A stretch of DNA of 64,000 bases from Candidatus Marinacidobacterales bacterium (GTDB lineage: Bacteria; Acidobacteriota; Vicinamibacteria; Marinacidobacterales; SMYC01). The stretch covers positions 2,002,567 through 2,066,566 of the forward strand of contig CBDFHB010000002.1 in NCBI GenBank assembly GCA_965247365.1, read 5' to 3'. A program made the position numbers and the translations under genes. Numbering within the stretch: the first letter of the stretch is position 1; each line of letters starts with the position of its first letter. This document shows, one piece after another, positions 2,741-29,882 of this stretch. The notes under the pieces were generated by a model that had not been told where the DNA came from, did not search any database, and saw nothing but the letters and a program-made list of their open reading frames with translations.

Positions 2741-3186
2741 CGGTGAGGTTCGTTCGTGCAAATCAGGCCTTGAACGGAACCCTCGGCAGCCCCCCCCCGA
2801 ACCCTTCTAACCTTTGTCGGCTTTGAGGAGCTTCGTCCTGCTCATGCTGAGGTATGGGCAAGCCCTCGAACGTCGCTTAGACGGCGACTGAGAGCTTCGT
2901 TTTATCGCAGCGAAAGATTCGAAGCCGCGCCCGGCTCGGGTCCGACCCGGCGCGAGAGCCCGTTTCCCATGTAAGACGAAATCCGGGGTGGAAAACCTCC
3001 CTGCCAACGCCGAAAATTCTCCCGCCGATTCCGTGCAATGAAAAGGGTGGTCACTTGCCCCTCGACTAGACTCGGTTTCGACCGCGAGAGACGAACATCC
3101 ATAAGTTCATGGGCGCGATTCTGCTCCATGGCTTTCGCCTGGCAAGCGCGAACGTATAGGATGCACAGATTGTCAGGAGGCTCCCA

Positions 3187-4547
<1,361 letters not shown>

Positions 4548-4551
<4 letters not shown>

Positions 4552-5816
4552 AGGCCCTTTGCTTGTTGCTGTTGTCGGCTTCCGCCGCGTCTGCTCAAAC
4601 CATTGCCATCGTCGGAGGTACGGTCCATACCGTCGACGGCGAGGTCATCGAGAACGGCATCGTTCTCATCGAGGACGAGCGCATCCAAAACGTCGGCCGT
4701 TCCCTCTCGATCCCGTCGAACGCCAGGCGGCTCGATGCCGATGGAAAAATCGTGACGCCGGGGCTCATCGACATCGGGACTTCTGTCGGCCTCATCGAGG
4801 TCCTAAGCCTTGCCGACACCCGCGACGCGAGCCTCGACAACGCAGACCCTTTCCGGCCCTCCTTTCGGGTGACCGACGGACTCAACCCGTACTCCATCGT
4901 CATTCCTGTCACGCGGCTCGGTGGCGTCACGACCGTGGCGAGCCTGCCCTCGGGAGGCATTCTCGCGGGGCAAGCGGCCGTCATCGACCTCACAGGATGG
5001 CGCGCCGCCGACATGATCGTGCGCGAACCGGCGGCGCTGGTCGGCGCGTTCAATCCCGCGGCCGCGGAAACGGTGGGAGGGGCCCGAGGTGCTCTTGGGC
5101 TTCGCCTGCGTGAAGCTCTCGACGACGCCCGTTTCTATGGCGAGAACGAGGAGGCGTTCGCCTCGGCCGCGCTCCGCGAGCTTTCGATGTCGAGGCTCGA
5201 CCTCGAGGCGCTGAAAAACGCTATGAGCACCGTGCTGCCCTTCGTCGTCCGCGCCTCTAGCACCGCGGATATCGATGCAGCGATGGCTCTCGCCGGCGAG
5301 TATGACCTCGATCTCGTCGTTCTCGGTGGCGAAGAGGCGTGGCGACGAAGCGGCGATCTCGCCGCGTCGGAAACGCCGGTGATCGTCAAAGCCTACGCGA
5401 ACGTTCCGGTGCAGTTCGATCGTCTCGGAACGCGTTTCGACAACGCCGCCCTCCTCGCAAGGGCAGGTGTACGCGTCGTGCTCTCCACGCTCGACACGCA
5501 CAATGCAAGAAATCTCCGTTTCGAGGCAGGGCAGGCCGTCCGCCACGGGATGAAGTGGGAGGAGGCGCTTCGCGCTGTGACGTTGACCCCTGCGGAAGTC
5601 ATGGGCATCGCGGACACGCACGGGTCACTCGAGACGGGCAAAACGGCGAACGTCGTCGTGTGGTCAGGCGATCCCTTCGAGCCCGCCTCCGCGGCGGAGC
5701 ACGTCTTCATCCGGGGCCGCGAGATCGAGCACGACTCCCGACAGATTCGACTGCTCGAGCGCTACAAGAACCTCGACGGCCGACCCGTGCAATACCTGGG
5801 AAACCCAACACCCTGA
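4548..5816 (+). CDS. Secreted amidohydrolase family protein (second gene of the pair)
   Basis: Start overlaps the upstream stop (ATGA). Has a signal peptide and the motif TPGLIDIGTSVGL. Same fold family as the upstream gene but divergent. Confidence 0.7.
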
Positions 5817-6025
5817 GAAAAGCAAAAGGCTAGGAAATTTCATACCTGTCCGGCCCCGGTCCGCACGAAAATTTGCCTCACTGGAAGGGGCCGTGCAGAC
5901 TGATTGAATCCTGGCAGACCGAGTTCCGCACTTCACCACTGCTTGCCGTTTCCATAACGAATCTAGTACGTGTGACCCACCTCAACCACCAGCGAATTGG
6001 GGACCTAACGCCGATTCAACAAGGC

Positions 6026-6550
6026 CTACAAGCTCCTGGATACGGCGAGCCTTCGATGGAGGCGCATCAACGCACCGGAGCTCGTCGCTCGAGCAAGTAG
6101 ACGATAGCGGCCTGTTGCTCGCGCTCGATCCAACCAGCGATGGCGACGACCAACAATGTCAAGGGCTGGATCGGCGTGCTCATGACCGAAGATTCTAGCT
6201 TGCATTGGCGAACCAAGCGTTGACAAGTCTATTCGAAACGTCCCGGCGCAAGCGGGTCTTGACTTCGTTTGCTTTTTTGGACACGACGGGTTTCGAATTG
6301 ACTGTCCACGGTTCCCGGTGTTACCACTCGTTTGGCCAAAACCGAAATCCAGCACCTTTACATGACCGCCGACCGTTAGCATGATGTTGGGCGGTTTCAA
6401 GTCTCGATGAACGATGTGCTCCCGATGAGCCGTGTCGAGTGCCTCGGCGATCTCCGAGGCGATGCGCTGCACGGCGACGAGCGACAAAGCCTCCGGCTTC
6501 AAGCGGTCGCCGAGCGTCTCACCTCCGATATACTCCATGGCTTGATCCAC
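6026..6550 (-). pseudogene. Ser/Thr protein kinase remnant (catalytic-loop fragment only)
   Basis: Contains HRDLKPPNIML (catalytic loop) and KVLDFG (DFG motif). The N-lobe is absent (stop immediately upstream). The sequence after DFG is nonsense in this frame, while an alternate frame gives LAKRVVTPGT... then a stop. Confidence 0.55.
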
Positions 6551-6688
6551 GCTCTCAAGTGTTGGGCAGGCTCAATACATAGTGTCTATCCGATATATTC
6601 TAGTGATGAGCCCAGCTAATCCAAAAGATTATATGCGGGTATTTAGAGAGCAGAGCGTAAGCCTTGGAAATGATAAAAGGAGGTAAAG

Positions 6689-9600
6689 ATGATTAGATTT
6701 AAGACATTCCCAAAATCAACTCTCTTATTCACTCTCTTTCTTGCACCATTGTTAGTGATAGCGATAGCTGAGCCAGTAACCACTTATGCGAACAATAATG
6801 ATAAGAGCAGTAATATTGTTTATGATCCCGATCTATATGCTGCAATGAAATATCGCTTAATCGGGCCCCACCGAGGCGGGCGAGTTACCGCAGTGGAAGG
6901 GATTCCGGACAAGCCTTTCACCTTTCTTATGGGAACAGTAGGCGGCGGTGTCTGGAAGACCACCGATGCCGGTGAAACCTGGAAAAATATTTCAGACGGG
7001 TACTTCAATGTGGGTTCTATAGGCGCGGTTACTGTCGCTCCATCCGACCACAATGTTATTTACGTTGGCGCTGGTTCTGCAGGTGTTCGCGGTTGTGTCT
7101 CTGTTGGCGACGGTGTCTACAAGTCGACTGATGGAGGCAGAACATGGAAACATACCGGTCTTCCTGAAGCCGGGCAGGTTAATGTGATCAGGGTTCACCC
7201 CAAAAATCCAGACTTGGTTTATGTAACAGCGTTGGGGCACATATTTGGACCAAATGAGGAACGCGGCATATATCGTTCAAAGGATGGAGGTCAAACGTGG
7301 GAGAAGGTGCTGTACCTGAGTGAGAAGACAGGAGCCATAGACCTGGTGATGAGCCCGGATAATCCACGAGAGCTATATGCGGCTATGTGGAGGGCAGAGC
7401 GGAAGCCATGGACCATGATCAGTGGAGGTAATGAAGGAGGAATATACAAAACAACCGATGGAGGAGATACATGGACCAGGTTGACAAATGGTATTCCGGA
7501 ATATCCTATTGGAAGAATAGGCCTGGCTATTTCCAAGGCGAATCCAGACCGTTTGTACGCACTTATCGAAGCTACAGGATGGAAAACAGGTCTTTATCGT
7601 TCTGAGGACAGGGGGAAGGAGTTTAATCTCATTAATCCGGATAAGAATTTAATGGCTCGCCCCTGGTATTACACGCATGTTGATGCTGACCCCCAGAACG
7701 CAGAGATTGTTTGGGTAAATAATGAACGTCTTTCAAAATCAATTGATGGAGGTAAGACTTTTAAGAGGGTAGCAACGCCACATGGGGACAATCACGATAT
7801 GTGGATAAACCCGGACAATCCGGATTTGATGATCCAGTCAAATGACGGTGGAGCTAATATTACGCTCAATGGAGGGGAAACATGGAGCACACAGTATAAC
7901 CAGCCAACTGCCGAGCTCTACACAGTGGAGGTAGACAACCAATTTCCTTACAGGGTTTACGCGCCTCAGCAGGACAACTCCACCATAAGTATTCCAAGCC
8001 GCGTTACTGGTAGGCCTCTTACACCCACTCAACTATGGTATGGAGTTGCTGGTGGCGAGTCAGGGCCTATTGCTGTTGATCCGGGAGATCCAAACATGAT
8101 CTATGGAGGAAAGTTTGGCAGAATCAGTCGACTTAATCTTAAAACCGGTCAGGAACGGGAAATCGCGGTATATCCGGAGGGTCTGCAATCCATGCCTAAC
8201 GCAGAGATTAAGTACCGCTTCCAGTGGGAATCCCAGATTTTAGTCTCCCCGCATAATCCGAACGTTATCTACCATCCATCTCACGTGGTACACAAGACGA
8301 CCGACCAAGGTCAGAGCTGGGAAGTTATAAGTTCTGACTTAACAAACTTCGAAAAACACAGAAATCTCCATTTGGATTTGCCCGGGGGGCCGATCACCCA
8401 TGATGCGACCGGAATAGAGATCTATGGAACTATTTTTGCTTTTGCAGAATCTCCACTTACCGAAGGCGAATTATGGGCTGGCAGCGATGATGGCTTGATT
8501 AATATCTCTCAAGATGGAGGCAAAACCTGGAACAATGTTACACCTAAAGGACTGGAGTTGCATAGCAAAGTCAAAGAAATTGCCTTGTCGAATCATCAAC
8601 CTGGCCGCGCTTTCGTAGCCGTAAACCGTTACCGTATGGATGACTTTAATCCTTACATTTACCGTACGCACGATTATGGAAATTCCTGGAAGCTATTAAC
8701 CAATGGAATTCCTGCAGGTCATCCACTCCGGTCCATAGCGGAAGATCCTGACCGCGAGGGATTAATATATGCCGGTACAGAGTTTGGGTTGTTTGTCTCG
8801 TTTGATAATGGTGACCACTGGCAATCATTTCAGCTCAACTTGCCAATAAGTCCTGTTATGGATTTGCAGGTGCATGAAAAGGATCTGGTTGTAGCAACGC
8901 AGGGCCGATCATTATGGATATTAGATGATTTGACCCCTCTCCACCAGCTAACAGACGAAGTGGCAAATGCAGATATCCATCTCTTTAAGCCTCGCGATGC
9001 CTATCGGCTGAGATTGAATCTTGGCCGGGCTGCAGCATCGCGTTCGCCTGAGAACCCGCCAAATGGAGCCATGATCTTCTATTCTTTCAAAGATGTGCCC
9101 AAAGATGTAGTTACCCTTGAAGTTCTGGATTCGAGTGGCAAAATTGTAAAATCGTTTTCCAGCAAAGACAAAAATGTTTTGCCTGTAAACAAGGGAATGA
9201 ACCGGTTCGTTTGGAATCTTAGATATCCGGGTCCGTATGTTACAAAAGGTGTAGATGAAGGCCGCAGCAGACCTATTCGAGGTTACCTGGGAGAAATCTC
9301 CGCCGCACCTGGGACATACAAGGTGAGACTTACGGTCGGCGAATGGAGCCACACGCAATCCCTTGAGGTTAAAAGAGATCCGCGTCTAGAAACAACTCAA
9401 GCAGAGTTACAGGAACAGTTCGATCTTATGGTTAAGGTGAGAGATAAAATAACTGAAACCCAGAAGAGCGTCACAAAGATCATGTCAGTGCGCGAACAGA
9501 TAAACAATAAAGCTGAACGCGCAGCGAAGCCTGATCTAAAGCAGCTTGCGGAAGCTATCAGTAAGAAGCTTTCAATAGTCGAAAGGAAACTCTGCATAAC

Positions 9601-9916
9601 AGAGCACGGTTCAGACGAAGCTTTCTATGCAGGGATGACCCAAAGATTAGCTGTTTTGTACTCGGTTATCGGAGCGTCGGATCATAAGCCTATAGATTCA
9701 GCCTATGAAAGATTTGAAGATTTGAAGAAAGTTTTGTCTGCATATTTGGAGCAACTTAAGGAAATCTTCGAGGTCGACGTCAAAACATTTAATGATAGAC
9801 TTCTGGAAAGTGGGATAGAACCAATTGGAACAGCCAACGGTCGGAAGCTGTCTCGCCCAGGGGAGGCTGGTACCCCCCTTCAAATACGCTATCTGCGAAA
9901 CGAAGCCAACGCCTGA
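6689..9916 (+). CDS. Sortilin/Vps10-domain BNR-repeat glycosyl-hydrolase-like protein (1075 aa), compositionally foreign
   Basis: Repeated S-x-D-G-G-x-T-W BNR/Asp-box motifs (TTDAGETW, STDGGRTW, SKDGGQTW, TTDGGDTW, SIDGGKTF, SQDGGKTW). Signal peptide present. RBS AAAGGAGG. GC is far below the flanks. Confidence 0.8.
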   Translation: MIRFKTFPKSTLLFTLFLAPLLVIAIAEPVTTYANNNDKSSNIVYDPDLYAAMKYRLIGPHRGGRVTAVEGIPDKPFTFLMGTVGGGVWKTTDAGETWKNISDGYFNVGSIGAVTVAPSDHNVIYVGAGSAGVRGCVSVGDGVYKSTDGGRTWKHTGLPEAGQVNVIRVHPKNPDLVYVTALGHIFGPNEERGIYRSKDGGQTWEKVLYLSEKTGAIDLVMSPDNPRELYAAMWRAERKPWTMISGGNEGGIYKTTDGGDTWTRLTNGIPEYPIGRIGLAISKANPDRLYALIEATGWKTGLYRSEDRGKEFNLINPDKNLMARPWYYTHVDADPQNAEIVWVNNERLSKSIDGGKTFKRVATPHGDNHDMWINPDNPDLMIQSNDGGANITLNGGETWSTQYNQPTAELYTVEVDNQFPYRVYAPQQDNSTISIPSRVTGRPLTPTQLWYGVAGGESGPIAVDPGDPNMIYGGKFGRISRLNLKTGQEREIAVYPEGLQSMPNAEIKYRFQWESQILVSPHNPNVIYHPSHVVHKTTDQGQSWEVISSDLTNFEKHRNLHLDLPGGPITHDATGIEIYGTIFAFAESPLTEGELWAGSDDGLINISQDGGKTWNNVTPKGLELHSKVKEIALSNHQPGRAFVAVNRYRMDDFNPYIYRTHDYGNSWKLLTNGIPAGHPLRSIAEDPDREGLIYAGTEFGLFVSFDNGDHWQSFQLNLPISPVMDLQVHEKDLVVATQGRSLWILDDLTPLHQLTDEVANADIHLFKPRDAYRLRLNLGRAAASRSPENPPNGAMIFYSFKDVPKDVVTLEVLDSSGKIVKSFSSKDKNVLPVNKGMNRFVWNLRYPGPYVTKGVDEGRSRPIRGYLGEISAAPGTYKVRLTVGEWSHTQSLEVKRDPRLETTQAELQEQFDLMVKVRDKITETQKSVTKIMSVREQINNKAERAAKPDLKQLAEAISKKLSIVERKLCITEHGSDEAFYAGMTQRLAVLYSVIGASDHKPIDSAYERFEDLKKVLSAYLEQLKEIFEVDVKTFNDRLLESGIEPIGTANGRKLSRPGEAGTPLQIRYLRNEANA

Positions 9917-9919
9917 ACG

Positions 9920-9946
9920 AAAGGGGCTACGATCTAGCCCTCCTAG
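9920..9946 (+). terminator. Putative intrinsic terminator after the BNR gene
   Basis: Perfect 8-bp stem aggggcta / tagcccct with a 4-nt loop, immediately 3' of the stop, followed by a T-containing tract. Confidence 0.35.
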
Positions 9947-10273
9947 CGTTTATGTTGGCATCATCGGCCGGCGGTACCAGAGCCGTCTGCAGTAAGAAAC
10001 CTGGTATCACGACAAAAATCCAATCTTGTCCAGCCAATTGGTCCTGGGGTGACGTGCGAACGGCTGAGATGGTTCCAACTTGGTTCCAAACCAGCGTGCC
10101 CTACGGTGCCCTAAGAGTCTTATCTCGCGCCGTCTTCCTTTGTTTAGGTGCTCTTAGGTTACGGTGGGTCTTCCTGGTTCGTAAGGGTGCAAATTCGTAA
10201 TCAGCAGGCCGGCGGTTCAAATCCGCCCGCCGGCGGAACATGTCAACAACATTGAGACACTCGCGAGCTGCAT

Positions 10274-11407
10274 TTAGTGAGCCTCGATTAACTTTCGGCG
10301 ACTGGTGATGTCCGCGTGGTCGACGTCTGCTTCGCTCGCGATCTCGTTGGGTGAAGCAGAAAAAGGGGGTACCCCAGGTATGGACGACGCCGAGAGAATG
10401 GCTCCTGCGGCATCCTGGAGCGTCGTTTTCTGCGGCGGCGGGTTGATCCAGGCCTGAGGAGGCAAAACGGGAGGTTGTGGCGTTCCGCGAACGAAGCGCT
10501 CGGGATGAGCACGCTGAGCCTCGAGAAGGATCTGGCGCCGAGCGGTGGTGAGTTGTTCGGCGCGACCGTAGTGAACGTCGGCCGGTGTCATAAGGCCGAC
10601 CCCCGAGTGCCGGTGGTCATTGTTGTAGTAGTCGAAGAAACCGCGGCAGAACAGCCGGCTGTCTTGGATGGAACCAAAACGGCTGGGGAACTGAGGGCAA
10701 TACTTGAGCGTTTTGAACTGAGACTCGGAGTAGGGATTGTCGTTCGAGACGTAGGGTCTGGAGTGGGTCTTGGTCACGCCGAGGTCTGCCAAGAGCAAAG
10801 CCACGGACTTGCTTCGCATCGAGCTGCCACGATCCGCGTGCATGGTGAGCTGGTCTGGTTCAATGTTTTGCTTGCGACAGCTCTCGGCGATGAGGCGTTT
10901 CGCGAGCTCGGCGCTTTCTCGGTGAGCCAGCATCCAGCCAACCACGTAGCGGGAGAAGATGTCGAGGATGACGTAGAGATAGTAGTAGGTCCACTTGACG
11001 GGGCCACGAAGCTTCGTGATATCCCACGACCAAACCTCGTTGGGCGCCTCGGCCAACAGCTCCGGCTTGGCGTAATTCGGATGGCGCAGTTGGTTCCGGC
11101 GCTCTCGGACCTCGCCGTACTTTTCCAAAATCCGATACATCGTGCGAATCGAGCAGAGGTAGATTCCCTCGTCCAGAAGCGTGGCCCACACCTGCGCGGG
11201 CGCCTTGTCGACGAAACGCTCACAGTGCAAGGCTCCGAGGACCTTCTCGCACTCGGTCTCGTCGAGGGCTCGGTGCGGCCGAGGACGACGCTTCGGTTTG
11301 GGCGTCACCAGCTGGCGCCTGCGATACAACGTGGAACGAGCCACACTCAGAGCCTCGCAGGCTTCCGCCGTCTGCCCAATCTGTCCCGCCAGCTCCTCGG
11401 CCGCCAC
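10274..11407 (-). CDS. IS transposase OrfB (DDE integrase-core/rve domain), 377 aa
   Basis: WSWDITKL...YLYVILDIFSRYVVGW...HADRGS...YNNDHRHSGVG are typical rve-domain DDE motifs. Protein is identical in all three copies. Confidence 0.8.
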   Translation of the reverse strand: MAAEELAGQIGQTAEACEALSVARSTLYRRRQLVTPKPKRRPRPHRALDETECEKVLGALHCERFVDKAPAQVWATLLDEGIYLCSIRTMYRILEKYGEVRERRNQLRHPNYAKPELLAEAPNEVWSWDITKLRGPVKWTYYYLYVILDIFSRYVVGWMLAHRESAELAKRLIAESCRKQNIEPDQLTMHADRGSSMRSKSVALLLADLGVTKTHSRPYVSNDNPYSESQFKTLKYCPQFPSRFGSIQDSRLFCRGFFDYYNNDHRHSGVGLMTPADVHYGRAEQLTTARRQILLEAQRAHPERFVRGTPQPPVLPPQAWINPPPQKTTLQDAAGAILSASSIPGVPPFSASPNEIASEADVDHADITSRRKLIEAH

Positions 11408-11409
11408 AA

Positions 11410-11877
11410 TCAGTCGTTCTCGTCGCTGTCGAGCGGATTCAGGGGGATCCCCAGCAGTTCGGAGGCTTTTTTTTGGATCTCCAACATCGTCTCCACTCGA
11501 GCCAGGCGACGTTGGAGCCGGGCGTTCTCGCGCTCGAGCTCCTTGACCCGTGGATCCTCTGCCTTCGCCTTCCGGCCTCGCTTTCTCGACGTCAACCCCG
11601 CCTTCGCGATCTCGTCACGTTGGCGGCGCCAACTCGATAGCTGCGACGAGTACAGGCCCTCTCGACGCAGAAGTGCCGCAATATCCCCGACACCCTTGCA
11701 GGCGTCGGCCTCGCGCACTAGCCGCAGCTTGTACTCCGCGGTAAAGCGTCGACGCTTCGCTTGCTCACTCACTTCCGTTTCCGGGACCCCCGCCGCATCG
11801 CGGCCGGCGGGATCTCCAGTCGCCCTACGGGCTCCTTCCGTTCCCGCCGGGGTCATTCTCTCAATCAATGAACTCAT
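11410..11877 (-). CDS. IS transposase OrfA (HTH transposase_8-like plus coiled coil), 155 aa
   Basis: RRRFTAEYKLRLVREA...GDIAALLRREGLYSSQLSSWRRQ HTH, followed by a leucine-zipper-like C-terminus. Lies 2 nt upstream of OrfB without overlap. Confidence 0.75.
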   Translation of the reverse strand: MSSLIERMTPAGTEGARRATGDPAGRDAAGVPETEVSEQAKRRRFTAEYKLRLVREADACKGVGDIAALLRREGLYSSQLSSWRRQRDEIAKAGLTSRKRGRKAKAEDPRVKELERENARLQRRLARVETMLEIQKKASELLGIPLNPLDSDEND

Positions 11878-11947
11878 TGATGATCCTCCTCCGCCCTACA
11901 CACTAATTTCAAGGGGCGAAGTGTCTCAAGGATGTTGGCACAGAGGG

Positions 11948-12141
11948 GCTTCGCTTGCTCACTCACTTCCGTTTCCGGGACCCCCGCCGCATCGCGGCCG
12001 GCGGGATCTCCAGTCGCCCTACGGGCTCCTTCCGTTCCCGCCGGGGTCATTCTCTCAATCAATGAACTCATTGATGATCCTCCTCCGCCCTACACACTAA
12101 TTTCAAGGGGCGAAGTGTCTCAAGGATGTTGGCACAGAGGG
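11948..12141 (-). mobile_element. Partial head-to-tail copy of the same IS (left end plus first ~41 codons of orfA, 194 bp) abutting copy 1
   Basis: The sequence from IRL through ...GAGCAAGCGAAGC is immediately followed by a fresh IRL (CCCTCTGTG...). This produces the short ORF 11874..12071. Confidence 0.7.
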
Positions 12142-12730: not shown

Positions 12731-13801
12731 ATGACGCTACGACAGCTCGGTTACTGGGTTCGCAAGGCGAAGGTGCAGCTCAAGGGTTGGTCCCCGGATA
12801 GAGATCGCGAATATCACGACTCGATATTTGCGGAAGCGCATCACGACCCTTTCAGTGATTCCTATCCCGGTCACATCACTATCCGCCGCTTTGCCGACCT
12901 CGTGTCCCCTCATCTGTCTGGCGCACATCATGTCCTGGATCTCGGGTGCGGTACGGGTGAGATCACCTGCCAGCTGGGCCGGTTCCACTCGGGCGTGAGC
13001 TTCGAAGGTATCGACCACAGTGAAGCGGGCATCGAGCGGGCAAGGGCCAACGCCGAGCGACTCGAGCTTTCGAACGTTTCCTTTCGGAAGGCCGACGTGG
13101 AGCATTTCGAGCCCGACCGCTCCGTCGATGTGCTGATGATGCTGGACGCGTTTCATCACCTCGTCGATCCGAAGCGATTTGTCGAGCGCCTGGGCGCGTT
13201 CACGAAAGCCTTTCTTCTGATCGAGCCTCGGGGCGACTGGAAGGGGACCTGGAACCGAGAGGTCGATTTCGACTGGTTGGTCCATGATCTGGAGAAGATT
13301 CGGGCCCGCATCGCTTACGCGACGGGAGAGTCGGAGTTGATGAAGCCCACCCTCCTGCCCAAAGGGGAGGAACAAGGAGAGCCCGTCGAGCATCGTTACA
13401 CGGTAGAGGACTTTCGACGGTTTTTCCGGGGCTACGGCCTTCAGATTCGAGGCACGATCGCCGGTATCGAGAGCTACCCTCCGAGCCCGGAGCTCGAGAG
13501 CCCCAGCCGTGAGCGGTTCGGACGGCTCGGCTACGAGCTCTATTCCGAAGTCGATGAGATGCTACGCGCGCGGAACCTCGATCTCTTAGCCAAACACCTG
13601 GTCATTCATGCCGAGCGGGGAGCTGCGGATTCTCTTCGCGCTCCGGCGGAAAAGCCGGAGGACGTGCCGTGGACGACACCCATCCAAGGGCCGTACGATG
13701 TGCTGTGGCTGAGCTACGACGGGACCGAACGAGGCTCCGGTAAGTCAAGAGTTCTTAGCTCAGGTGCGGCTGCGAAACACCAGCTCGCGCTCCTGGTCTA
13801 G
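12731..13801 (+). CDS. Class I SAM-dependent methyltransferase
   Basis: VLDLGCGTGE (motif I), ...FRKADVEHF..., DVLMMLDAFHHL. Corresponds to the Methyltransf_11/12-like fold. Confidence 0.75.
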   Translation: MTLRQLGYWVRKAKVQLKGWSPDRDREYHDSIFAEAHHDPFSDSYPGHITIRRFADLVSPHLSGAHHVLDLGCGTGEITCQLGRFHSGVSFEGIDHSEAGIERARANAERLELSNVSFRKADVEHFEPDRSVDVLMMLDAFHHLVDPKRFVERLGAFTKAFLLIEPRGDWKGTWNREVDFDWLVHDLEKIRARIAYATGESELMKPTLLPKGEEQGEPVEHRYTVEDFRRFFRGYGLQIRGTIAGIESYPPSPELESPSRERFGRLGYELYSEVDEMLRARNLDLLAKHLVIHAERGAADSLRAPAEKPEDVPWTTPIQGPYDVLWLSYDGTERGSGKSRVLSSGAAAKHQLALLV

Positions 13802-14497
13802 TGACGACCCCGAACGACCCGATTATCTCAGCTACCATTGGCTCGATCGACGGGGTGGCATCGTCGAGTTCGATGGACCGAGAACCGCGATACGCGTCCG
13901 GCCCGGTGAGGAAGTAGACGTCAGCCTCCATGCGAAGACGCTCGCCCAACCAGGTCGATACGTATTGGCGCTCGATCTCGTCCAGGAATCCAGAACCTGG
14001 TTCAGCAAGGCCGGCAGTCCCTGCCTGCGCGTCCCGTTCTTCGCTCGGAAACCGCGATAGCCCGCGCCGGCCCTCGTGGAGTCGCGGCGCGGGCGTTCGT
14101 GCACTAGGGCGATTCCGTGAGCTTTAGATCGTGACCGTGTTTTCGCGCGATCGCACCACATCGATGCGGACATGGGCGCGTTGCTACGCTTGGCCGTCGA
14201 CGCGGTGGACGGACGCGCGGCGGCTCATCCGAGATTGCCCAAGGCGACGGAGCCAACACCGAAGGCGTTACCAACGCGCTCGAGACTGCGATGAAGCTAC
14301 TCGTGTCGTAGCGCTTCGACCGCTTGGACACGAATCGCCCGTCGCGCCGCTTCTCGCCTCGGACGGGGCCGGGGCAGAGGTGCGGATCAACGAGGGGGCA
14401 CACCGGGGGCACAAAGTCACAGATGACCGACGATTATCGTAAAAAGAGCCGACTCCCGGAACAAGAATACGCGCGTCCGAATGAAAGGAGCTTTTCA

Positions 14498-14725
14498 ATG
14501 CCCGAGTATCCGCGAGTGACTATTCAGATTGCTGACAAACCCGACGAGCTTACTCTTACCCCCGGTCCAGTCCGTTCCGTGAAGTTCGACTTTCCGGATG
14601 GTCATTCCTTCACCGTCGAGTGTGAGTTTGAGGGGGATCTCCCGACCCTGGTCATTTCAGCCAACCGAAAGCTAGAGGAACCCAACAGGGGGCCTTTTGT
14701 TGTTGTGGTCAGGCCTGACAAGTAA
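14498..14725 (+). CDS. Small hypothetical protein (75 aa)
   Basis: ATG is preceded by GAAAGGAG. Same frame as the downstream GAF-Lon ORF but separated from it by TAA. Confidence 0.4.
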   Translation: MPEYPRVTIQIADKPDELTLTPGPVRSVKFDFPDGHSFTVECEFEGDLPTLVISANRKLEEPNRGPFVVVVRPDK

Positions 14726-14758
14726 GAGAGGCCCGCCCCCTCACTCGTACCCGTCACC

Positions 14759-16330
14759 ATGCATGGGATTCTGGAGGCAATGGCCCTCATCATTGAGGAC
14801 GAGCGTCCTGGCATGAAGTGCTCGGTGCTGCTCCTGGACGATGCAGGCCGTCGCGTCAGCGTGGGCGCGGGTCCGAGCTTGCCGGACGAATACAATAGCG
14901 CCGTCGAAGGTCTGTTGATCGGGCGTGGCGTGGGATCGTGTGGCACCGCTGCCTACTGGAATGAGCGTGTCATCGTGGAGGACATCCATCGGGGAAGTTC
15001 ATCCGGCGGAGGAGGTCCTGGAAGCGGGGTCGGAACGGAGGGGGTCGAACGAACCGGTCCAACCGCCAAGGCAAACGAGCATCGAACTGAGGGACATGAA
15101 CTCTACCGCTCGGCCAGTCCAGCATCATCCGCTTGCAGAAACGACTTCAAATCCGCCATCGATGAGAAGGTGTCTCGAATCGTGGGTGATGGGCGCGCAG
15201 CCGATGGTCGTAGCTCCGACGAACTCGGTGGGTTCTCGTCCGCGATGCTCGAGATCCTCGACCCGCAGCAAAACGACACGTTTCGTGACAACTACCTCGA
15301 TTTGCCGTTCGATCTATCGAGCGTTTTCTTCATTACGACCGCGAACACCCTCGATACTATTCCGCGCCCGCTCCTCGACCGCATGGAGGTGTTGTCGCTC
15401 ACCGGCTACAGCGAGGAAGAAAAACTAGGTATCGCCAAGAAGTATTTGTTGCCTCGCCAGCTCGAGGAGAGCGGCGTCACCGCGGAGCAGTGCGAGCTTC
15501 CCGATGACACGCTGTTACGGCTGATTCGTCGCTATACGCGTGAAGCCGGGCTCCGCCAACTCGAGCGCATCATCGGCCGGGTCGTACGCAAAGTTGCGGT
15601 CGGTTTCGCTGAGGGGAAAACAGATCCGGTCACGGTCACGCCCGACGACCTGGTCGACATGCTCGGACCAGAAACGTTTCACATCGAGAAGGCGCGCGAC
15701 GAGATGCCGGCTGGCGTCGCAGCCGGTCTCGCGTGGACGCCCGCCGGCGGTGACGTGCTCTACATCGAATCGGCGCTCCTTCCGGGAGGGAGCGGGCTGA
15801 CGATGACGGGGCAGCTCGGAAGTGTCATGCAAGAATCCGCCCGCGCCGCACAGAGCTATCTTTGGTCGCACGCGGAAGAGTTCGAGATCGATCCGGAGCG
15901 CTTCAAGAACACCGGTGTTCACCTTCACGTTCCCGCAGGAGCGATACCCAAAGACGGGCCGTCCGCCGGCATCACCATGGCGACCGCGCTCGCTTCTCTC
16001 TACTGCGGAAAGGCGGTGCGATTGGATACCGCCATGACGGGGGAGATCACCATCACCGGTCTCGTGCTCCCGATCGGGGGAGTGAAGGAGAAAGTCCTCG
16101 CGGCCCGCCGGGCGGAGTTCAAGCGCATCATTCTGCCGCGGCAGAACGAGGCGAATCTACACGACCTGCCCGATGACGTGCGCGCGGAGACGGAGTTTAT
16201 CTTCGTCGACCACGTCGACGAAGTTCTCCGTGCGGCGATTCCCGACCTAATAAGCCGTCCTAGCGAAGCTGCGCCCAGGTTAAGGCACGATTCGGCTTAC
16301 CGTGCAGAAACCGAGCCTTTTCTGGAGTAG
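14759..16330 (+). CDS. Chimeric GAF-domain / Lon-protease C-terminal protein (lacks the Lon N-domain and Walker A)
   Basis: N-terminus CSVLLLDDAGRRVSVGAG...GLLIGRGVGSCGTAAYWNERVIVEDI is GAF-like. From about aa 175, LEILDPQQNDTFRDNYLDLPFDLSSVFFITTANTLDTIPRPLLDRMEV...DGPSAGITMATALASL...GEITITGLVLPIGGVKEK is co-linear with the Lon AAA+ sensor region and the S16 protease domain (Ser-Lys dyad region). Confidence 0.7.
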   Translation: MHGILEAMALIIEDERPGMKCSVLLLDDAGRRVSVGAGPSLPDEYNSAVEGLLIGRGVGSCGTAAYWNERVIVEDIHRGSSSGGGGPGSGVGTEGVERTGPTAKANEHRTEGHELYRSASPASSACRNDFKSAIDEKVSRIVGDGRAADGRSSDELGGFSSAMLEILDPQQNDTFRDNYLDLPFDLSSVFFITTANTLDTIPRPLLDRMEVLSLTGYSEEEKLGIAKKYLLPRQLEESGVTAEQCELPDDTLLRLIRRYTREAGLRQLERIIGRVVRKVAVGFAEGKTDPVTVTPDDLVDMLGPETFHIEKARDEMPAGVAAGLAWTPAGGDVLYIESALLPGGSGLTMTGQLGSVMQESARAAQSYLWSHAEEFEIDPERFKNTGVHLHVPAGAIPKDGPSAGITMATALASLYCGKAVRLDTAMTGEITITGLVLPIGGVKEKVLAARRAEFKRIILPRQNEANLHDLPDDVRAETEFIFVDHVDEVLRAAIPDLISRPSEAAPRLRHDSAYRAETEPFLE

Positions 16331-17381
16331 GTGTGCTCTCAGAACCTGCTGACTATCTATCATCCGCCGGCCTAGAACTCTCTTTTCATGAATGCGTTCC
16401 AGGAAGCGGTCACCAGTCGGTCGCATCAAAACTGGTGCGAATCGCTGGGAGATTGCCAGTGGCCATGTTGGGGCTTCTGACGACCTAACGTGGCAAACTC
16501 GGCCTGCGGAAGAACCGGATGCCCTGGGAAACCAAAACCTTCACGCGCGAAGAACTGTATCAGTTGGTATGGGGGCGACCCGTCCAGCACGTGGCCGAGA
16601 GCATCGACGTCTCGGATGTGGCCCTTGGAAAAACGTGTCGGCGGCTCGGTATCCCAGTCCAGCCACAGCTCTCTCTCGATCGTCAAACTCCTCGAGAGCA
16701 GTTACCGCTCGCATCCATCATTCCTCGGCTTCATCCACGCGCCCCAATGCGGCCACCGTTTGTCCTAGTGCGAAACGATCCGCTGCCGCGTGGGAACCAG
16801 CAGGCAACTCGTCGCGAATCCGCAATCTCTGCCTGAAGCACTTCTCGGCCTGGTCGTAGTCCTTACGCCCTTGGGCGATATGTCCGGAAGTGCTGAGGAG
16901 ATTTGCGATCATATGGGGCTCGCGTGAAGCGGGGCATCTTGCAGTGACCTCAAAACATCGAGTAACGCGAATCAGTCAATCCGGTCGTCGCGTGCTGGCC
17001 TCTCCCGTGGAGCTCGAGACGATGCCAACGCATGTGACCCACGGAGTTGGGCGGGGACCGACGCCAACCTTCTTGCCGACCCCCGCCCTCCTTGCTCACA
17101 CTAGATATATACGACTTCCCGAGTCGAATTTTCTCCCCGAGAGAAGAAAGCTCAACGGCGCAGCCACCTGGAAGCGGGGTCAGTCCACAAGCGTCGTCGC
17201 TTCGTCGGCTCGATCGGTGAATACTGTGCCGAGGCTTTCGGAGTGGATAGGAAAGTACATGCGCACCGTACAACCCGCGGAACTCGGCCCACCGTTGGTC
17301 ACCGTGCCACCATGCCGGCGCACGATTCGCGACGACCACGGCGAGGCCAAGCCCCCCTCTTTCCTGGACAAGGCGCGTCCG

Positions 17382-19902: not shown

Positions 19903-20628
19903 CTATCCGAACTTCCCTTCCAGCTTGGGGTAGCAGCCCCGAAGACGCGAAAGACTGCTATTGGGACATTCGGGGAAGGAGAACGACAAGCTATGATTCT
20001 CCAGCATGTAGCGGACCGCCTTGCCGAAGTCGCTTCGCGGCAGTCCCCGCTGGGTCAGTGCCCATTCGCGGATCGAGCTCAAGATCGGCCGCGAACGTTC
20101 TTTGCGTAGACGAAGCCTCAGCTTCTGAGCCTCTTCATCGCCGGGAAACGGGCCTGGAACCAGACGCTCGACCTCGTAAAGCTCTCCGATCAGGCGAAGC
20201 ACTTCGGAGCAAGCCTGCGGGTAGTGCTCGCTGGCTTCATCGAACTTCCGTTTGACGTGCGCCCAGCAATGGGCGAGTCGAATCTCGGGGCCCGCACGGG
20301 CGAGCACTTCATAAACGGCGTAACCATCAACAACCGCGATGCCGCGATAGTTTCCCAAAACCTTCCGGCCATCCTCCGTCGATTTCGTCGGCAGCATCCG
20401 GTAGTACGCAATGTCGGGACTCGACACCCCCCAAACCGTGCCCGCCGATTTCTTCTTCGAGCCCATCAACGGCCACCGGGGTTTCGTCCGCGTGGATGGC
20501 GGGCGATTCCAGCACCTTCTTTCCCAGGGCGTCGTACACGGGTACAGACTTGTCACGACGGGGTGCGGCGAGTACTTACTGAACAGATGCAGCCTTTTGG
20601 CCACAGGCGTGCAGGTTTTTCGCCACAC
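19903..20628 (-). pseudogene. IS66-family transposase (TnpC) remnant, N-terminally truncated and frameshifted
   Basis: KKKSAGTVWGV...GIAVVDGYAVYEVL...RLAHCWAHVKRKFDEA is the IS66 TnpC core. The LHADETPV motif lies in a different frame (ORF 20327..20539). No zinc-finger N-terminus is present. Confidence 0.6.
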
Positions 20629-22026: not shown

Positions 22027-22298
22027 TTACCTTGCGGCTAGGTCGCCATGCAGAACCCCGCAAGCTCTTCTTCAATCCTCTAGAAACGTACCCCCGCTAG
22101 GACCGACCACAGCCAGCCGGCGTCACTCTCGAGGATTGTCTGACCCATGAATTCCACGGTGAACTGTCGATTCAACTCGACACCGCCCATGATCTGAACC
22201 CCAGGGTCCTTGAACCATTCGCTTTCGGCCCTCTGTGCCAACATCCTTGAGACACTTCGCCCCTTGAAATTAGTGTGTAGGGCGGAGGAGGATCATCA

Positions 22299-22766
22299 AT
22301 GAGTTCATTGATTGAGAGAATGACCCCGGCGGGAACGGAAGGAGCCCGTAGGGCGACTGGAGATCCCGCCGGCCGCGATGCGGCGGGGGTCCCGGAAACG
22401 GAAGTGAGTGAGCAAGCGAAGCGTCGACGCTTTACCGCGGAGTACAAGCTGCGGCTAGTGCGCGAGGCCGACGCCTGCAAGGGTGTCGGGGATATTGCGG
22501 CACTTCTGCGTCGAGAGGGCCTGTACTCGTCGCAGCTATCGAGTTGGCGCCGCCAACGTGACGAGATCGCGAAGGCGGGGTTGACGTCGAGAAAGCGAGG
22601 CCGGAAGGCGAAGGCAGAGGATCCACGGGTCAAGGAGCTCGAGCGCGAGAACGCCCGGCTCCAACGTCGCCTGGCTCGAGTGGAGACGATGTTGGAGATC
22701 CAAAAAAAAGCCTCCGAACTGCTGGGGATCCCCCTGAATCCGCTCGACAGCGACGAGAACGACTGA
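22299..22766 (+). CDS. IS transposase OrfA (copy 2)
   Basis: Identical protein to 11410..11877. Confidence 0.75.
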   Translation: MSSLIERMTPAGTEGARRATGDPAGRDAAGVPETEVSEQAKRRRFTAEYKLRLVREADACKGVGDIAALLRREGLYSSQLSSWRRQRDEIAKAGLTSRKRGRKAKAEDPRVKELERENARLQRRLARVETMLEIQKKASELLGIPLNPLDSDEND

Positions 22767-22768
22767 TT

Positions 22769-23902
22769 GTGGCGGCCGAGGAGCTGGCGGGACAGATTGG
22801 GCAGACGGCGGAAGCCTGCGAGGCTCTGAGTGTGGCTCGTTCCACGTTGTATCGCAGGCGCCAGCTGGTGACGCCCAAACCGAAGCGTCGTCCTCGGCCG
22901 CACCGAGCCCTCGACGAGACCGAGTGCGAGAAGGTCCTCGGAGCCTTGCACTGTGAGCGTTTCGTCGACAAGGCGCCCGCGCAGGTGTGGGCCACGCTTC
23001 TGGACGAGGGAATCTACCTCTGCTCGATTCGCACGATGTATCGGATTTTGGAAAAGTACGGCGAGGTCCGAGAGCGCCGGAACCAACTGCGCCATCCGAA
23101 TTACGCCAAGCCGGAGCTGTTGGCCGAGGCGCCCAACGAGGTTTGGTCGTGGGATATCACGAAGCTTCGTGGCCCCGTCAAGTGGACCTACTACTATCTC
23201 TACGTCATCCTCGACATCTTCTCCCGCTACGTGGTTGGCTGGATGCTGGCTCACCGAGAAAGCGCCGAGCTCGCGAAACGCCTCATCGCCGAGAGCTGTC
23301 GCAAGCAAAACATTGAACCAGACCAGCTCACCATGCACGCGGATCGTGGCAGCTCGATGCGAAGCAAGTCCGTGGCTTTGCTCTTGGCAGACCTCGGCGT
23401 GACCAAGACCCACTCCAGACCCTACGTCTCGAACGACAATCCCTACTCCGAGTCTCAGTTCAAAACGCTCAAGTATTGCCCTCAGTTCCCCAGCCGTTTT
23501 GGTTCCATCCAAGACAGCCGGCTGTTCTGCCGCGGTTTCTTCGACTACTACAACAATGACCACCGGCACTCGGGGGTCGGCCTTATGACACCGGCCGACG
23601 TTCACTACGGTCGCGCCGAACAACTCACCACCGCTCGGCGCCAGATCCTTCTCGAGGCTCAGCGTGCTCATCCCGAGCGCTTCGTTCGCGGAACGCCACA
23701 ACCTCCCGTTTTGCCTCCTCAGGCCTGGATCAACCCGCCGCCGCAGAAAACGACGCTCCAGGATGCCGCAGGAGCCATTCTCTCGGCGTCGTCCATACCT
23801 GGGGTACCCCCTTTTTCTGCTTCACCCAACGAGATCGCGAGCGAAGCAGACGTCGACCACGCGGACATCACCAGTCGCCGAAAGTTAATCGAGGCTCACT
23901 AA
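22769..23902 (+). CDS. IS transposase OrfB, DDE/rve (copy 2)
   Basis: Identical protein to 10274..11407. Confidence 0.8.
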   Translation: MAAEELAGQIGQTAEACEALSVARSTLYRRRQLVTPKPKRRPRPHRALDETECEKVLGALHCERFVDKAPAQVWATLLDEGIYLCSIRTMYRILEKYGEVRERRNQLRHPNYAKPELLAEAPNEVWSWDITKLRGPVKWTYYYLYVILDIFSRYVVGWMLAHRESAELAKRLIAESCRKQNIEPDQLTMHADRGSSMRSKSVALLLADLGVTKTHSRPYVSNDNPYSESQFKTLKYCPQFPSRFGSIQDSRLFCRGFFDYYNNDHRHSGVGLMTPADVHYGRAEQLTTARRQILLEAQRAHPERFVRGTPQPPVLPPQAWINPPPQKTTLQDAAGAILSASSIPGVPPFSASPNEIASEADVDHADITSRRKLIEAH

Positions 23903-24552
23903 ATGCAGCTCGCGAGTGTCTCAATGTTGTTGACATGTTCCGCGGACTCTCCAAATGCGCTGAGCTTCACATAGTTGGACAGGAGCCCGACACCACCGCC
24001 CACGTACGGGCGAATCTTTTCTTGCTCTGACTTCCATTTGACGTTTACGAAAACATTCGCCGGAACGGTTTTGAAATTGATGTCGCCTTCCGTTCTGCTA
24101 CGGTAGGCGCCTTGAAACTCCAACCCGATAAAGCCTTGGGGGCCGAATGCGCCCCAATCGCTTCCCACCGAGGCGAACCAGCGATCTGTAAATCCTCCAA
24201 GATCACTGTTCAAGTTGATGCCGAGCTTCAAGAAAGCATCCCCGGCCAGGAGAGCTGGCGGTGCAGACAGGAACGCGGCCGTCAAGATGATGGCGATTGT
24301 CCAGCGTGTCATTTTCTTGTCCCTTTCGTGCTCGACGAAGAGCGAGCTTCTAGCGATGCGAAACCGCCGAAAAGTGTCGGCCCTCACGCTTCTTCGTCTA
24401 AGGTAGTGTGCTGATAAAGAACATTGTCGCACAAATTTTTGAACCTGTCTCGTCAGTTGGTAGTGGTTTTAGTCTGATTAGACCACCCGTTTTTTCTCCT
24501 CGGCCGGGCCTTGATTTCCATAGATTTGACCCCCATCATTGAAATACAGGAA

Positions 24553-27752: not shown

Positions 27753-27871
27753 ATGCTGACTCAACATCTCATCAGGAATCTCGTCTCGGTCGGGCTAACT
27801 GTAGCCCTTTCCACTTTACTGGCTGCCCCAGCAAGTGCGGATACACCATGTCCAACGCTTCTATTCGATCT
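27753..27871 (+). pseudogene. 5' fragment of a secreted-protein gene truncated by the IS256-like element
   Basis: MLTQHLIRNLVSVGLTVALSTLLAAPASADTPCPTLLFDL, then the ORF reads into the IS256-like end (SRFPWK). Confidence 0.4.
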
Positions 27872-28167
27872 GTCCCGCTTCCCGTGGAAATAAGAATGGC
27901 GTAACCTCCGGTTAACCAAAACCAAACCGCGCCTGGAAAGGCGAGGAGGAGGATTACGCCATGAAGAAGCCTACCACCATATCGAACGAGTCAGTAAGCG
28001 AGTACCGGGAGTTCGTCCAGCTTCGGCTGCGCAAGCGGGTGCTGGAGGCGATCGAGGTCGTGCTCGAGGAGGAAGTGGAGCAAGCGCTGGGGTGTCGTAG
28101 CTACGAGCGTGCGGAAGGACGTCGTGGTTATCGCAACGGGGCCGAGACCCGTCGCGTGACGACGGCC
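27872..28167 (+). mobile_element. IS256-family element, 5' fragment (left IR plus first ~69 codons of the transposase), cut by IS3-like copy 3
   Basis: GTCCCGCTTCCCGTGGAAATAAGAATGGCG... and MKKPTTISNESVSEYREFVQLRLRKRVLEAIEVV...ETRRVTTA are co-linear with the intact copy at 32819..34174 (same left end, about 97% aa identity). Confidence 0.7.
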
Positions 28168-28237
28168 CCCTCTGTGCCAACATCCTTGAGACACTTCGCC
28201 CCTTGAAATTAGTGTGTAGGGCGGAGGAGGATCATCA

Positions 28238-28705
28238 ATGAGTTCATTGATTGAGAGAATGACCCCGGCGGGAACGGAAGGAGCCCGCAGGGCGACTGGA
28301 GATCCCGCCGGCCGCGATGCGGCGGGGGTCCCGGAAACGGAAGTGAGTGAGCAAGCGAAGCGTCGACGCTTTACCGCGGAGTACAAGCTGCGGCTAGTGC
28401 GCGAGGCCGACGCCTGCAAGGGTGTCGGGGATATTGCGGCACTTCTGCGTCGAGAGGGCCTGTACTCGTCGCAGCTATCGAGTTGGCGCCGCCAACGTGA
28501 CGAGATCGCGAAGGCGGGGTTGACGTCGAGAAAGCGAGGCCGGAAGGCGAAGGCAGAGGATCCACGGGTCAAGGAGCTCGAGCGCGAGAACGCCCGGCTC
28601 CAACGTCGCCTGGCTCGAGTGGAGACGATGTTGGAGATCCAAAAAAAAGCCTCCGAACTGCTGGGGATCCCCCTGAATCCGCTCGACAGCGACGAGAACG
28701 ACTGA
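28238..28705 (+). CDS. IS transposase OrfA (copy 3)
   Basis: Identical protein to the other copies. Confidence 0.75.
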   Translation: MSSLIERMTPAGTEGARRATGDPAGRDAAGVPETEVSEQAKRRRFTAEYKLRLVREADACKGVGDIAALLRREGLYSSQLSSWRRQRDEIAKAGLTSRKRGRKAKAEDPRVKELERENARLQRRLARVETMLEIQKKASELLGIPLNPLDSDEND

Positions 28706-28707
28706 TT

Positions 28708-29841
28708 GTGGCGGCCGAGGAGCTGGCGGGACAGATTGGGCAGACGGCGGAAGCCTGCGAGGCTCTGAGTGTGGCTCGTTCCACGTTGTATCGCAGGCGC
28801 CAGCTGGTGACGCCCAAACCGAAGCGTCGTCCTCGGCCGCACCGAGCCCTCGACGAGACCGAGTGCGAGAAGGTCCTCGGAGCCTTGCACTGTGAGCGTT
28901 TCGTCGACAAGGCGCCCGCGCAGGTGTGGGCCACGCTTCTGGACGAGGGAATCTACCTCTGCTCGATTCGCACGATGTATCGGATTTTGGAAAAGTACGG
29001 CGAGGTCCGAGAGCGCCGGAACCAACTGCGCCATCCGAATTACGCCAAGCCGGAGCTGTTGGCCGAGGCGCCCAACGAGGTTTGGTCGTGGGATATCACG
29101 AAGCTTCGTGGCCCCGTCAAGTGGACCTACTACTATCTCTACGTCATCCTCGACATCTTCTCCCGCTACGTGGTTGGCTGGATGCTGGCTCACCGAGAAA
29201 GCGCCGAGCTCGCGAAACGCCTCATCGCCGAGAGCTGTCGCAAGCAAAACATTGAACCAGACCAGCTCACCATGCACGCGGATCGTGGCAGCTCGATGCG
29301 AAGCAAGTCCGTGGCTTTGCTCTTGGCAGACCTCGGCGTGACCAAGACCCACTCCAGACCCTACGTCTCGAACGACAATCCCTACTCCGAGTCTCAGTTC
29401 AAAACGCTCAAGTATTGCCCTCAGTTCCCCAGCCGTTTTGGTTCCATCCAAGACAGCCGGCTGTTCTGCCGCGGTTTCTTCGACTACTACAACAATGACC
29501 ACCGGCACTCGGGGGTCGGCCTTATGACACCGGCCGACGTTCACTACGGTCGCGCCGAACAACTCACCACCGCTCGGCGCCAGATCCTTCTCGAGGCTCA
29601 GCGTGCTCATCCCGAGCGCTTCGTTCGCGGAACGCCACAACCTCCCGTTTTGCCTCCTCAGGCCTGGATCAACCCGCCGCCGCAGAAAACGACGCTCCAG
29701 GATGCCGCAGGAGCCATTCTCTCGGCGTCGTCCATACCTGGGGTACCCCCTTTTTCTGCTTCACCCAACGAGATCGCGAGCGAAGCAGACGTCGACCACG
29801 CGGACATCACCAGTCGCCGAAAGTTAATCGAGGCTCACTAA
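28708..29841 (+). CDS. IS transposase OrfB, DDE/rve (copy 3)
   Basis: Identical protein to the other copies. Confidence 0.8.
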   Translation: MAAEELAGQIGQTAEACEALSVARSTLYRRRQLVTPKPKRRPRPHRALDETECEKVLGALHCERFVDKAPAQVWATLLDEGIYLCSIRTMYRILEKYGEVRERRNQLRHPNYAKPELLAEAPNEVWSWDITKLRGPVKWTYYYLYVILDIFSRYVVGWMLAHRESAELAKRLIAESCRKQNIEPDQLTMHADRGSSMRSKSVALLLADLGVTKTHSRPYVSNDNPYSESQFKTLKYCPQFPSRFGSIQDSRLFCRGFFDYYNNDHRHSGVGLMTPADVHYGRAEQLTTARRQILLEAQRAHPERFVRGTPQPPVLPPQAWINPPPQKTTLQDAAGAILSASSIPGVPPFSASPNEIASEADVDHADITSRRKLIEAH

Positions 29842-29882
29842 ATGCAGCTCGCGAGTGTCTCAATGTTGTTGACATGTTCCGC

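Follow-up and report, generated by a model that had tools for sequence, protein, structure and literature searches.

A 523-codon open reading frame with GAF and Lon protease sequences in an IS-rich region is likely a recent mosaic of gene fragments

Results

The locus and its features

The reading frame studied here lies on the plus strand of a 64-kb stretch of DNA, which was analyzed over its whole length and is called the window below. It was found exactly where one continuous frame of 523 codons had been proposed, and it begins with an ATG (Table 1). Base-by-base alignments divided this ORF into four mutually unrelated DNA segments, all with abrupt borders: a fragment of a sensor gene with a GAF domain (the GAF piece), a stretch of orphan DNA (the filler), a fragment of lon (the lon piece) and a short tail. 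At the junctions, covered by sequence stretches such as VIVEDIHRGSSS and GGFSSAMLEILDPQQ, a search for repeats, target-site duplications and inverted repeats returned only short matches at chance level. Pfam searches with every small ORF at 13.8-14.9 kb and 16.3-16.9 kb yielded no further gene fragments.

The surrounding region is rich in insertion sequences, as had been suggested, with three IS3-family copies, a fragment of an IS66 transposase and an IS256-family transposase. The three IS3-family copies share 99.9-100% identity with one another, and copies 1 (left) and 2 (right) bracket the fragment-rich segment that includes the ORF.

Table 1. Features annotated at the locus and in the surrounding window
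Feature	Position	Strand	Description
IS3-family copy 1	10233-11947	-	1715 bp; its end is tandemly duplicated over the next 194 bp (to 12141)
Small upstream ORF	14498-14725	+	75 aa from ATG 14498; mechanical ORF begins at 14324
Junction zone between upstream segment and GAF fragment	14726-14745		G+C-rich short hairpin at 14726-14742
GAF piece	14746-14991	+	246 bp from inside a PAS-GAF(-histidine kinase) sensor gene
ORF	14759-16330	+	523 aa, ATG start
Filler ('G/S-rich linker', residues 79-159)	14992-15236	not assigned	Orphan, 245 bp
lon piece	15237-16271	+	3' fragment of housekeeping lonA, ~1.03 kb
Lid	15464-15622	+	Within the lon piece
S16 protease domain	15635-16240	+	Ser402 codon at 15962-15964; Lys445
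Tail	16272-16330	+	Foreign; replaces the native Lon C-terminus and supplies the stop TAG
IS66 transposase fragment	19903-20628		
IS3-family copy 2	22229-23943	+	100% identical to copy 1, inverted
IS3-family copy 3	28167-29882	+	1715 bp
IS256-family transposase	32877-34085		

Upstream ORF and expression signals

The small upstream ORF is preceded by a strong Shine-Dalgarno sequence (AAAGGAG) 8 nt 5' of its ATG. At the ATG of the chimera no Shine-Dalgarno sequence lies within reach, and no sigma-70-like promoter was found between 13.9 and 16.7 kb. This ATG corresponds to an internal methionine of the parent GAF genes that is conserved in the closest homologues. The frame of the upstream ORF (14324-14725) is that of the chimera, from which it is separated by a TAA and a further 33 nt before the ATG, in agreement with what had been noted earlier. 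Although in frame with the chimera, the upstream ORF is unrelated to it. It has no Pfam match, and it was rejected as a candidate for the PAS part that the sensor-gene fragment lacks, with no similarity detected and with tblastn matches beginning at 14717-14771 only. Being well signalled and located just 5' on the same strand, this small ORF could supply transcription, an observation that counts against a mosaic of gene fragments.

The GAF piece

Residues 1-77 of the ORF are 82% identical (E=1e-37) to the start of the GAF domain in a family of PAS-GAF sensor proteins (P0121-P0138), which consist of a PAS-like region followed by GAF and, in P0122 and P0138, a histidine-kinase H-box after the GAF domain. 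On the DNA level the similarity forms an island with sharp ends, 88.6% identical to an internal stretch of the gene in L002 (positions 6399-6644). When compared with P0122, an intact relative in which GAF_2 covers residues 26-169 (profile 3-136), the piece keeps the equivalent of residues 23-103, or ~54% of the domain, and the homologues run for ~75 GAF residues past the break at which it ends. Neither the PAS region before the piece nor the remainder of GAF after it is present in any frame.

A GAF-like fold had been proposed for residues 1 to ~80, and this proposal does not hold beyond homology to the first half of the domain. The N-terminal 162 residues alone match GAF_2 (PF13185) with E=0.09 and 13.4 bits, over profile positions 19-75 of 136 (57 positions), against a Pfam cut-off of 28.6 bits. 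With the full ORF and default thresholds, no GAF family of Pfam was reported. The N-terminus therefore does not contain a complete domain of ~140 residues at the Pfam gathering score (PF13185 or PF01590). One substitution affects a conserved motif, since the Pro of IGPGVGSCG, found in 15 of 17 homologues, is an Arg in the ORF (IGRGVGSCG). Over its 81 codons the piece has an uninformative dN/dS of 0.27 and a GC content by codon position of 0.68/0.45/0.73. With no more than the first ~78 of ~144 GAF residues retained, a ligand pocket would not be expected to form, and binding of a small molecule by this half domain would be structurally implausible.

The filler and the open frame

Residues of about 78-160 are indeed rich in Gly and Ser, as described in the original prediction. 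No credible homologue of the filler was found in the ORF frame or in the five other frames (concatenated), and JGI metagenomes contained neither an exact 24-mer nor a locus with its peptide pattern. A HMMER search over 1.84 billion representatives gave one match, P0139 (E=4e-6). It rests on the motif HELYRSxxPA, which is matched five times in a protein made of 55-aa repeats, and is regarded as a chance match inflated by the repeats. We also rejected the filler as a hypermutated remnant of the lon 5' part, an idea prompted by a MAFFT alignment that placed its GGPGSGVG under the Walker A motif GPPGVGKT; local protein and DNA alignment scores were at or below the means of shuffled sequences.

In the ORF frame, the three codon positions of the filler have GC contents of 0.65/0.63/0.53, versus 0.67/0.43/0.75 in the lon piece. 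This profile is unlike that of both the lon and the GAF pieces, and the filler therefore does not look like DNA with a coding history in this frame. Judging by this composition, it is probably non-coding there.

Stops are absent across the filler in two of the three plus-strand frames. For comparison, 25% of all 82-codon windows in the ~60%-GC 64-kb stretch are free of stops, and the chance that the GAF and lon pieces share a frame is estimated at one in three. On these figures a chance in-frame join is estimated at several percent per junction set. As a rough figure, the a priori chance of an in-frame join through an open filler would be about 5-10%. That two coding pieces share a frame through an open filler is an observation that counts against a mosaic of gene fragments. 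Such a chance join would nevertheless be unremarkable in a fragment-rich region that was scanned for oddities.

The lon piece

The lon piece is 94.7% identical in DNA to L001 (over 15237-16269) and 93.9% identical to L003 (over 15237-16271). L001 is a MAG contig encoding P0002, an intact Lon of 791 aa, and L003 (OZ250169) is a complete MAG chromosome from Candidatus Marinacidobacterales (class Vicinamibacteria, Acidobacteriota) with a full-length lon. Intact lon genes of the Candidatus Marinacidobacterales MAGs compared encode 791-804 aa. P0002 is also the closest protein, with 94% identity over 68% of the query. The piece corresponds to its residues ~437-778, with homology beginning at about SAMLEIL, and the last ~13 or more codons of native lon, including the stop, are missing.

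As to domain content, the two C-terminal Pfam families were matched over residues 236-288 (Lon_lid, E=5e-18) and 293-494 (Lon_C, E=1.2e-80, profile 2-203 of 205). The motifs of the Ser/Lys dyad, DGPSAG and GGVKEK, are present, and alignment A3 shows no variation at S402 or K445; we take these residues to be equivalent to S679 and K722 of E. coli Lon. The S16 domain had been called complete, which is correct for the Lon_C profile. The native C-terminal tail of lon has been replaced. Of the AAA domain (P0002 residues 352-489) the window keeps 437-489, or ~53 of 138 residues, and Pfam matches the tail of AAA only (ORF residues 149-212, profile 74-126 of 131). The proposed Lon AAA+ remnant is thus present, but it begins after Walker B rather than at about the Walker B/sensor region. 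Neither a P-loop nor Walker B was found in the ORF. From established knowledge of Lon structure and function, the Walker A and Walker B motifs have been lost together with pore loop 1, in every frame, and two of five core strands are kept, while sensor-1 (ITTAN), the Arg finger (LLDRMEV) and sensor-2 (YTREAGLR) are intact. The absence of Walker A and of the Lon N-domain had been stated correctly: PF02190, the N-terminal LON domain, has no match in the ORF, and tblastn with a full-length Lon of a relative found residues 426-778 only, with residues 1-425 nowhere in the 64 kb in any frame.

Among NCBIfam families the best match is lon/LonA, although scores remain below the full-length cut-offs: the match to TIGR00763 (LonA equivalog) spans profile positions 434-794 of 795, with E=1.5e-136 and 456.9 bits versus a cut-off of 608, and NF008053 scores 342 bits versus 891. 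The nearest other Lon-family model is TIGR02903 (spore_lon_C, 'Lon family ATP-dependent protease') at E=8e-19, and the BrxL model TIGR02653 (BREX defence) scores 33 bits versus a cut-off of 628. Solved structures matched by the ORF include 6u5z (E. coli Lon, at residues 426-772) and 4ypl (M. taiwanensis LonA). In an AlphaFold2 model, pLDDT stayed below 50 over residues 1-215 (20-37 in the GAF part), reached 83-91 in the lid and was moderate in the protease domain. The model is weak evidence because the underlying alignment was shallow and uninformative for the N-terminus.

Selection on the lon piece

When compared with L001 and L003, the lon piece shows dN/dS of 0.09-0.13, versus 0.105-0.123 between the intact genes of L001 and L003. 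Three-way subtraction of pairwise distances gives ~0.09 for the window's own branch, and the coding pieces contain no internal stops. Since dN/dS equals that of intact genes, nearly all of the divergence accumulated in a functional lon. For the same reason dN/dS was set aside as a test of pseudogenisation: a very recent truncation, a lon piece recently copied from the intact lon of the same genome, and continued function are equally compatible with these values. Taken by itself, the lack of relaxed selection together with intact catalytic motifs counts against a mosaic of gene fragments and fits a very recent event.

Genomic context of lon in relatives

Intact lon in L001 has 14 flanking genes, among them TonB_C, HSP20, SDRs and UvrD. 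The window contains no homologue of any of them, and the lon piece was therefore moved or copied rather than decaying in place. The original prediction had held that full-length Lon at this locus in relatives would imply a deletion here. Full-length Lon does occur in relatives, and the N-terminus does not score as GAF, so that both observations named in advance as refuting the original prediction were made. The lon of relatives lies in a different neighbourhood, however, so that the window carries a translocated fragment and not the product of a simple in-place deletion.

Degraded lon genes were also noted on contigs of related MAGs. With frameshifts, L005 lacks residues ~281-452 and L006 lacks ~283-416 (ATPase core), while L007 retains residues 481-771 only. 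Their dN/dS is slightly raised (0.15-0.22). The lesions may in part be sequencing errors, because these are low-coverage long-read assemblies. Some neighbours of intact lon in L001 are shared by L006 (TonB_C and HSP20) and L007 (MacB_PCD, UvrD and a 5'-3' exonuclease), so that the remnants in these two probably decay in place.

Uniqueness of the architecture

Orthologs with the same architecture were sought and none was found in protein, representative-genome or JGI metagenome searches. Each of the 120 best protein matches, out of 5.8 billion proteins, covers at most 70% of the query, so that no protein with the chimeric architecture is among them. Neither 185,579 GTDB representative genomes nor JGI metagenomes contain the junction peptides. 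Searches of the literature returned no paper on a GAF-Lon fusion and none on Marinacidobacterales.

Discussion

A mosaic of gene fragments

In all likelihood the ORF is a mosaic of gene fragments left by a recent rearrangement, amounting to a pseudogene with a frame that happens to be open. Its coding pieces are internal parts of genes that are intact elsewhere, their borders are sharp and their flanks foreign, and essential parts are missing. The second of two alternatives in the original prediction, a rearrangement product in an IS-rich region, is borne out by these borders and flanks and by the full-length lon found elsewhere in relatives. Rather than a novel ligand-gated protease, the ORF is most probably a dead mosaic, stitched together from gene remnants among mobile elements. 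We suggest that a recent event of illegitimate recombination or IS-associated rearrangement, in an IS-rich segment of a genome related to Candidatus Marinacidobacterales, would have brought side by side 246 bp from within a PAS-GAF sensor-kinase gene, the 245-bp orphan filler and 1.03 kb from the 3' part of lonA. By chance the two coding pieces would have come to lie in a common frame and the filler would have been free of stops. Given the shared frame and the stop-free filler, an ORF finder reads 523 codons from the internal Met of the parent GAF gene. The ORF would then be non-functional and of recent origin, or its lon piece would have been copied not long ago from an intact lon at another place in the genome. 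If the ORF were translated, residues 1-215 would be unfolded, and at most the lid and S16 domain would form a weak ATP-independent peptidase lacking ligand control of the GAF type.

Alternative explanations

The sharp junctions would also be expected if the contig joined non-contiguous pieces and the ORF were absent from the organism, and the close relatives do come from low-coverage long-read metagenome assemblies (7x-13x) whose lon loci show frameshifts and deletions. However, assembly chimeras join blocks of read or k-mer scale at shared repeats, whereas two pieces of ~245 bp are found here with no repeat at the junctions. In addition, the pieces are 5-11% diverged from every sequence in the databases, a level that would be expected of a native genome but not of contamination from another sample. 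We therefore regard an assembly or consensus artefact as unlikely. Ligand gating, the first alternative of the original prediction, would make the ORF an ATP-independent Lon-like protease controlled by GAF. It agrees with the true homology of the N-terminus to GAF-domain sensors and with the complete protease domain, and is nonetheless extremely improbable: about half of the GAF domain (~54%, ~78 of ~144 residues) is present and carries the Pro to Arg change, its pLDDT is 20-37, two of five AAA+ core strands remain, the linker is orphan DNA that lacks a coding signature and the architecture is unique.

There is a better, though still small, chance that the ORF is a young functional gene, in which the lid and S16 domain fold and assemble into a ring behind 215 disordered N-terminal residues, with a predicted role either in peptide cleavage independent of ATP or, as a subunit, in poisoning or modulating the intact Lon of the cell. 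The frame is open, and the catalytic and oligomerisation parts (Lon_lid and Lon_C) are present in full, without an excess of amino-acid substitutions. High pLDDT values were obtained for the lid, structures of isolated lid-protease or protease-domain fragments of Lon have been solved (5e7s, 4ypm, 1rr9), and ATP-independent Lon-like proteases exist in nature (LonC, PMC3391209). Yet a recent copy would give an equally low dN/dS, no conservation was found among proteins, representative genomes or JGI metagenomes, translation signals are missing at the ATG and coding signatures in the filler, and the partial Rossmann fold would expose its hydrophobic core. A newborn and expressed gene formed by fragment shuffling seems very unlikely to us; it would carry a disordered N-terminal extension (half GAF, filler and AAA remnant) on a foldable Lon lid/S16 ring and is predicted to act as an ATP-independent peptidase or as a modulator co-assembling with intact Lon. 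If true, it would mean that the birth of a bacterial gene by shuffling of domain fragments had been caught in the act, and it would serve as a natural experiment on a Lon ring that has no motor.

As a mosaic of fragments, the ORF has little biological weight, being one more case of gene remnants accumulating at active insertion sequences. It also gives reason for caution, since fragments joined in frame by chance can produce a long open frame that carries two domain signatures, especially at ~60% GC.

Comparison with known systems

The ORF shares the GSCGTAA motif and the start of GAF (residues 1-77) with PAS-GAF sensor histidine kinases (P0121-P0138). In contrast to the ORF, these proteins have a PAS-like N-terminus, the second half of GAF and, in P0122 and P0138, HisKA/HATPase domains. 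With LonA (P0002, 4ypl, 6u5z) it has in common the lid, the S16 domain and the Ser-Lys dyad, and over residues ~160-504 it shares 93-95% identity with the LonA proteins of close relatives. However, the LonA features up to E. coli residue ~436 (the N-terminal substrate-binding domain, the long helix, Walker A/B and pore loop 1) are all missing, as is the native C-terminal tail. Thus, the ORF has the lid and the S16 dyad expected of a LonA member, but not the N-domain, the complete AAA+ module (GPPGVGKT, DEIDK) or a full-length score.

LonC resembles the ORF in combining S16 with the lack of a working ATPase, and an ORF product that folded would be functionally similar to it, cleaving unfolded substrates independently of ATP. 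MtaLonC, however, represents an old separate clade with a complete but degenerate AAA-like domain fused to S16 (PMC3391209), whereas the ORF contains a 94%-identical slice of ordinary LonA with a truncated AAA core and falls outside that clade. The degraded lon genes of L005, L006 and L007 are similar to the lon remnant of the ORF in being truncated or internally deleted, with near-normal dN/dS and in a context of mobile elements. They differ in that those of L006 and L007 probably decay in place, whereas the remnant in the ORF was translocated and fused in frame to other fragments. In kind, the ORF belongs with what is already known, namely gene remnants in an IS-rich region.

Mobile elements around the chimera

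Three IS3-family elements of 1715 bp each, composed of an HTH_Tnp_1 ORF and an rve ORF, share 99.9-100% identity within the window, and were therefore recently active. Copies 1 and 2, which are mutually inverted, flank a gene-poor segment of about 10 kb. Directly after copy 1, the last 194 bp of this element occur a second time in tandem (11948-12141). The IS66 family is represented by a transposase fragment. At the upstream end of the IS256/Mutator-family transposase lies one copy of a 300-bp repeat (33880-34179), whose second, inverted copy (27867-28166; 94% identity) adjoins IS3 copy 3.

Features in the window and in related MAG contigs
Feature	Contig	Position	Strand	Remarks
BNR/Sortilin-Vps10 repeat protein	window	6689-9916		1075 aa; inside low-GC island
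IS3-family copy 1	window	10233-11947	-	HTH_Tnp_1 + rve ORFs
Class-I SAM methyltransferase ORF	window	12731-13801		seeming continuation in different frame, 13764-14060
75-aa ORF, upstream of chimera	window	14498-14725	+	strong Shine-Dalgarno AAAGGAG, 8 nt spacing
ORF directly downstream of chimera	window	16519-16836		conserved-looking N-terminus TREELYQLVWGRPVQHVAESIDVSDVALGKTCRRLGIP, then low-complexity sequence
IS66-family transposase fragment	window	19903-20628	-	profile positions 83-241 of 284 only
IS3-family copy 2	window	22229-23943	+	HTH_Tnp_1 + rve ORFs
IS3-family copy 3	window	28167-29882	+	HTH_Tnp_1 + rve ORFs
IS256/Mutator-family transposase	window	32877-34085	-	intact-looking
Degraded lon	L005 (acidobacterial MAG)	9176-10962		
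Degraded lon	L006 (acidobacterial MAG)	3150-5053		
Degraded lon	L007 (acidobacterial MAG)	3986-4858		residues 481-771 only
P0121, closest PAS-GAF relative, with the small ORF after it	L002	6001-7084		241 aa; GAF domain broken off (profile 3-93/136)

ORFs and composition near the chimera

The 75-aa ORF upstream of the chimeric GAF-lon ORF has coding-like positional GC, and no Pfam family was found for it; transcription driven from this ORF could read through into the chimera. The downstream ORF, with a weak RWP-RK match (E=1.7e-4), is probably a further gene fragment. Farther upstream, the class-I SAM methyltransferase gene (12731-14060) probably contains a frameshift. The region at 6000-10000 has a GC content of 0.47-0.52, compared to approximately 0.60 elsewhere, and this island was possibly acquired horizontally.

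Relatives of the fused gene fragments

P0121 ends inside its GAF domain and its gene is followed by a small ORF, which suggests a frameshift in the L002 MAG too. The lon genes of both L005 and L006 lack the ATPase core and carry frameshifts; their deletions start at nearly coincident points (residue ~281-283) and end differently, at residue 452 in L005 and 416 in L006. Several database Lon proteins (P0010-P0012, 609-619 aa) begin near residue 173, suggesting a recurrent frame break at this point. Degradation of lon in L005, L006 and L007 could reflect errors of low-coverage long-read assemblies, or it could represent the true decay of one lon paralog in the relatives.
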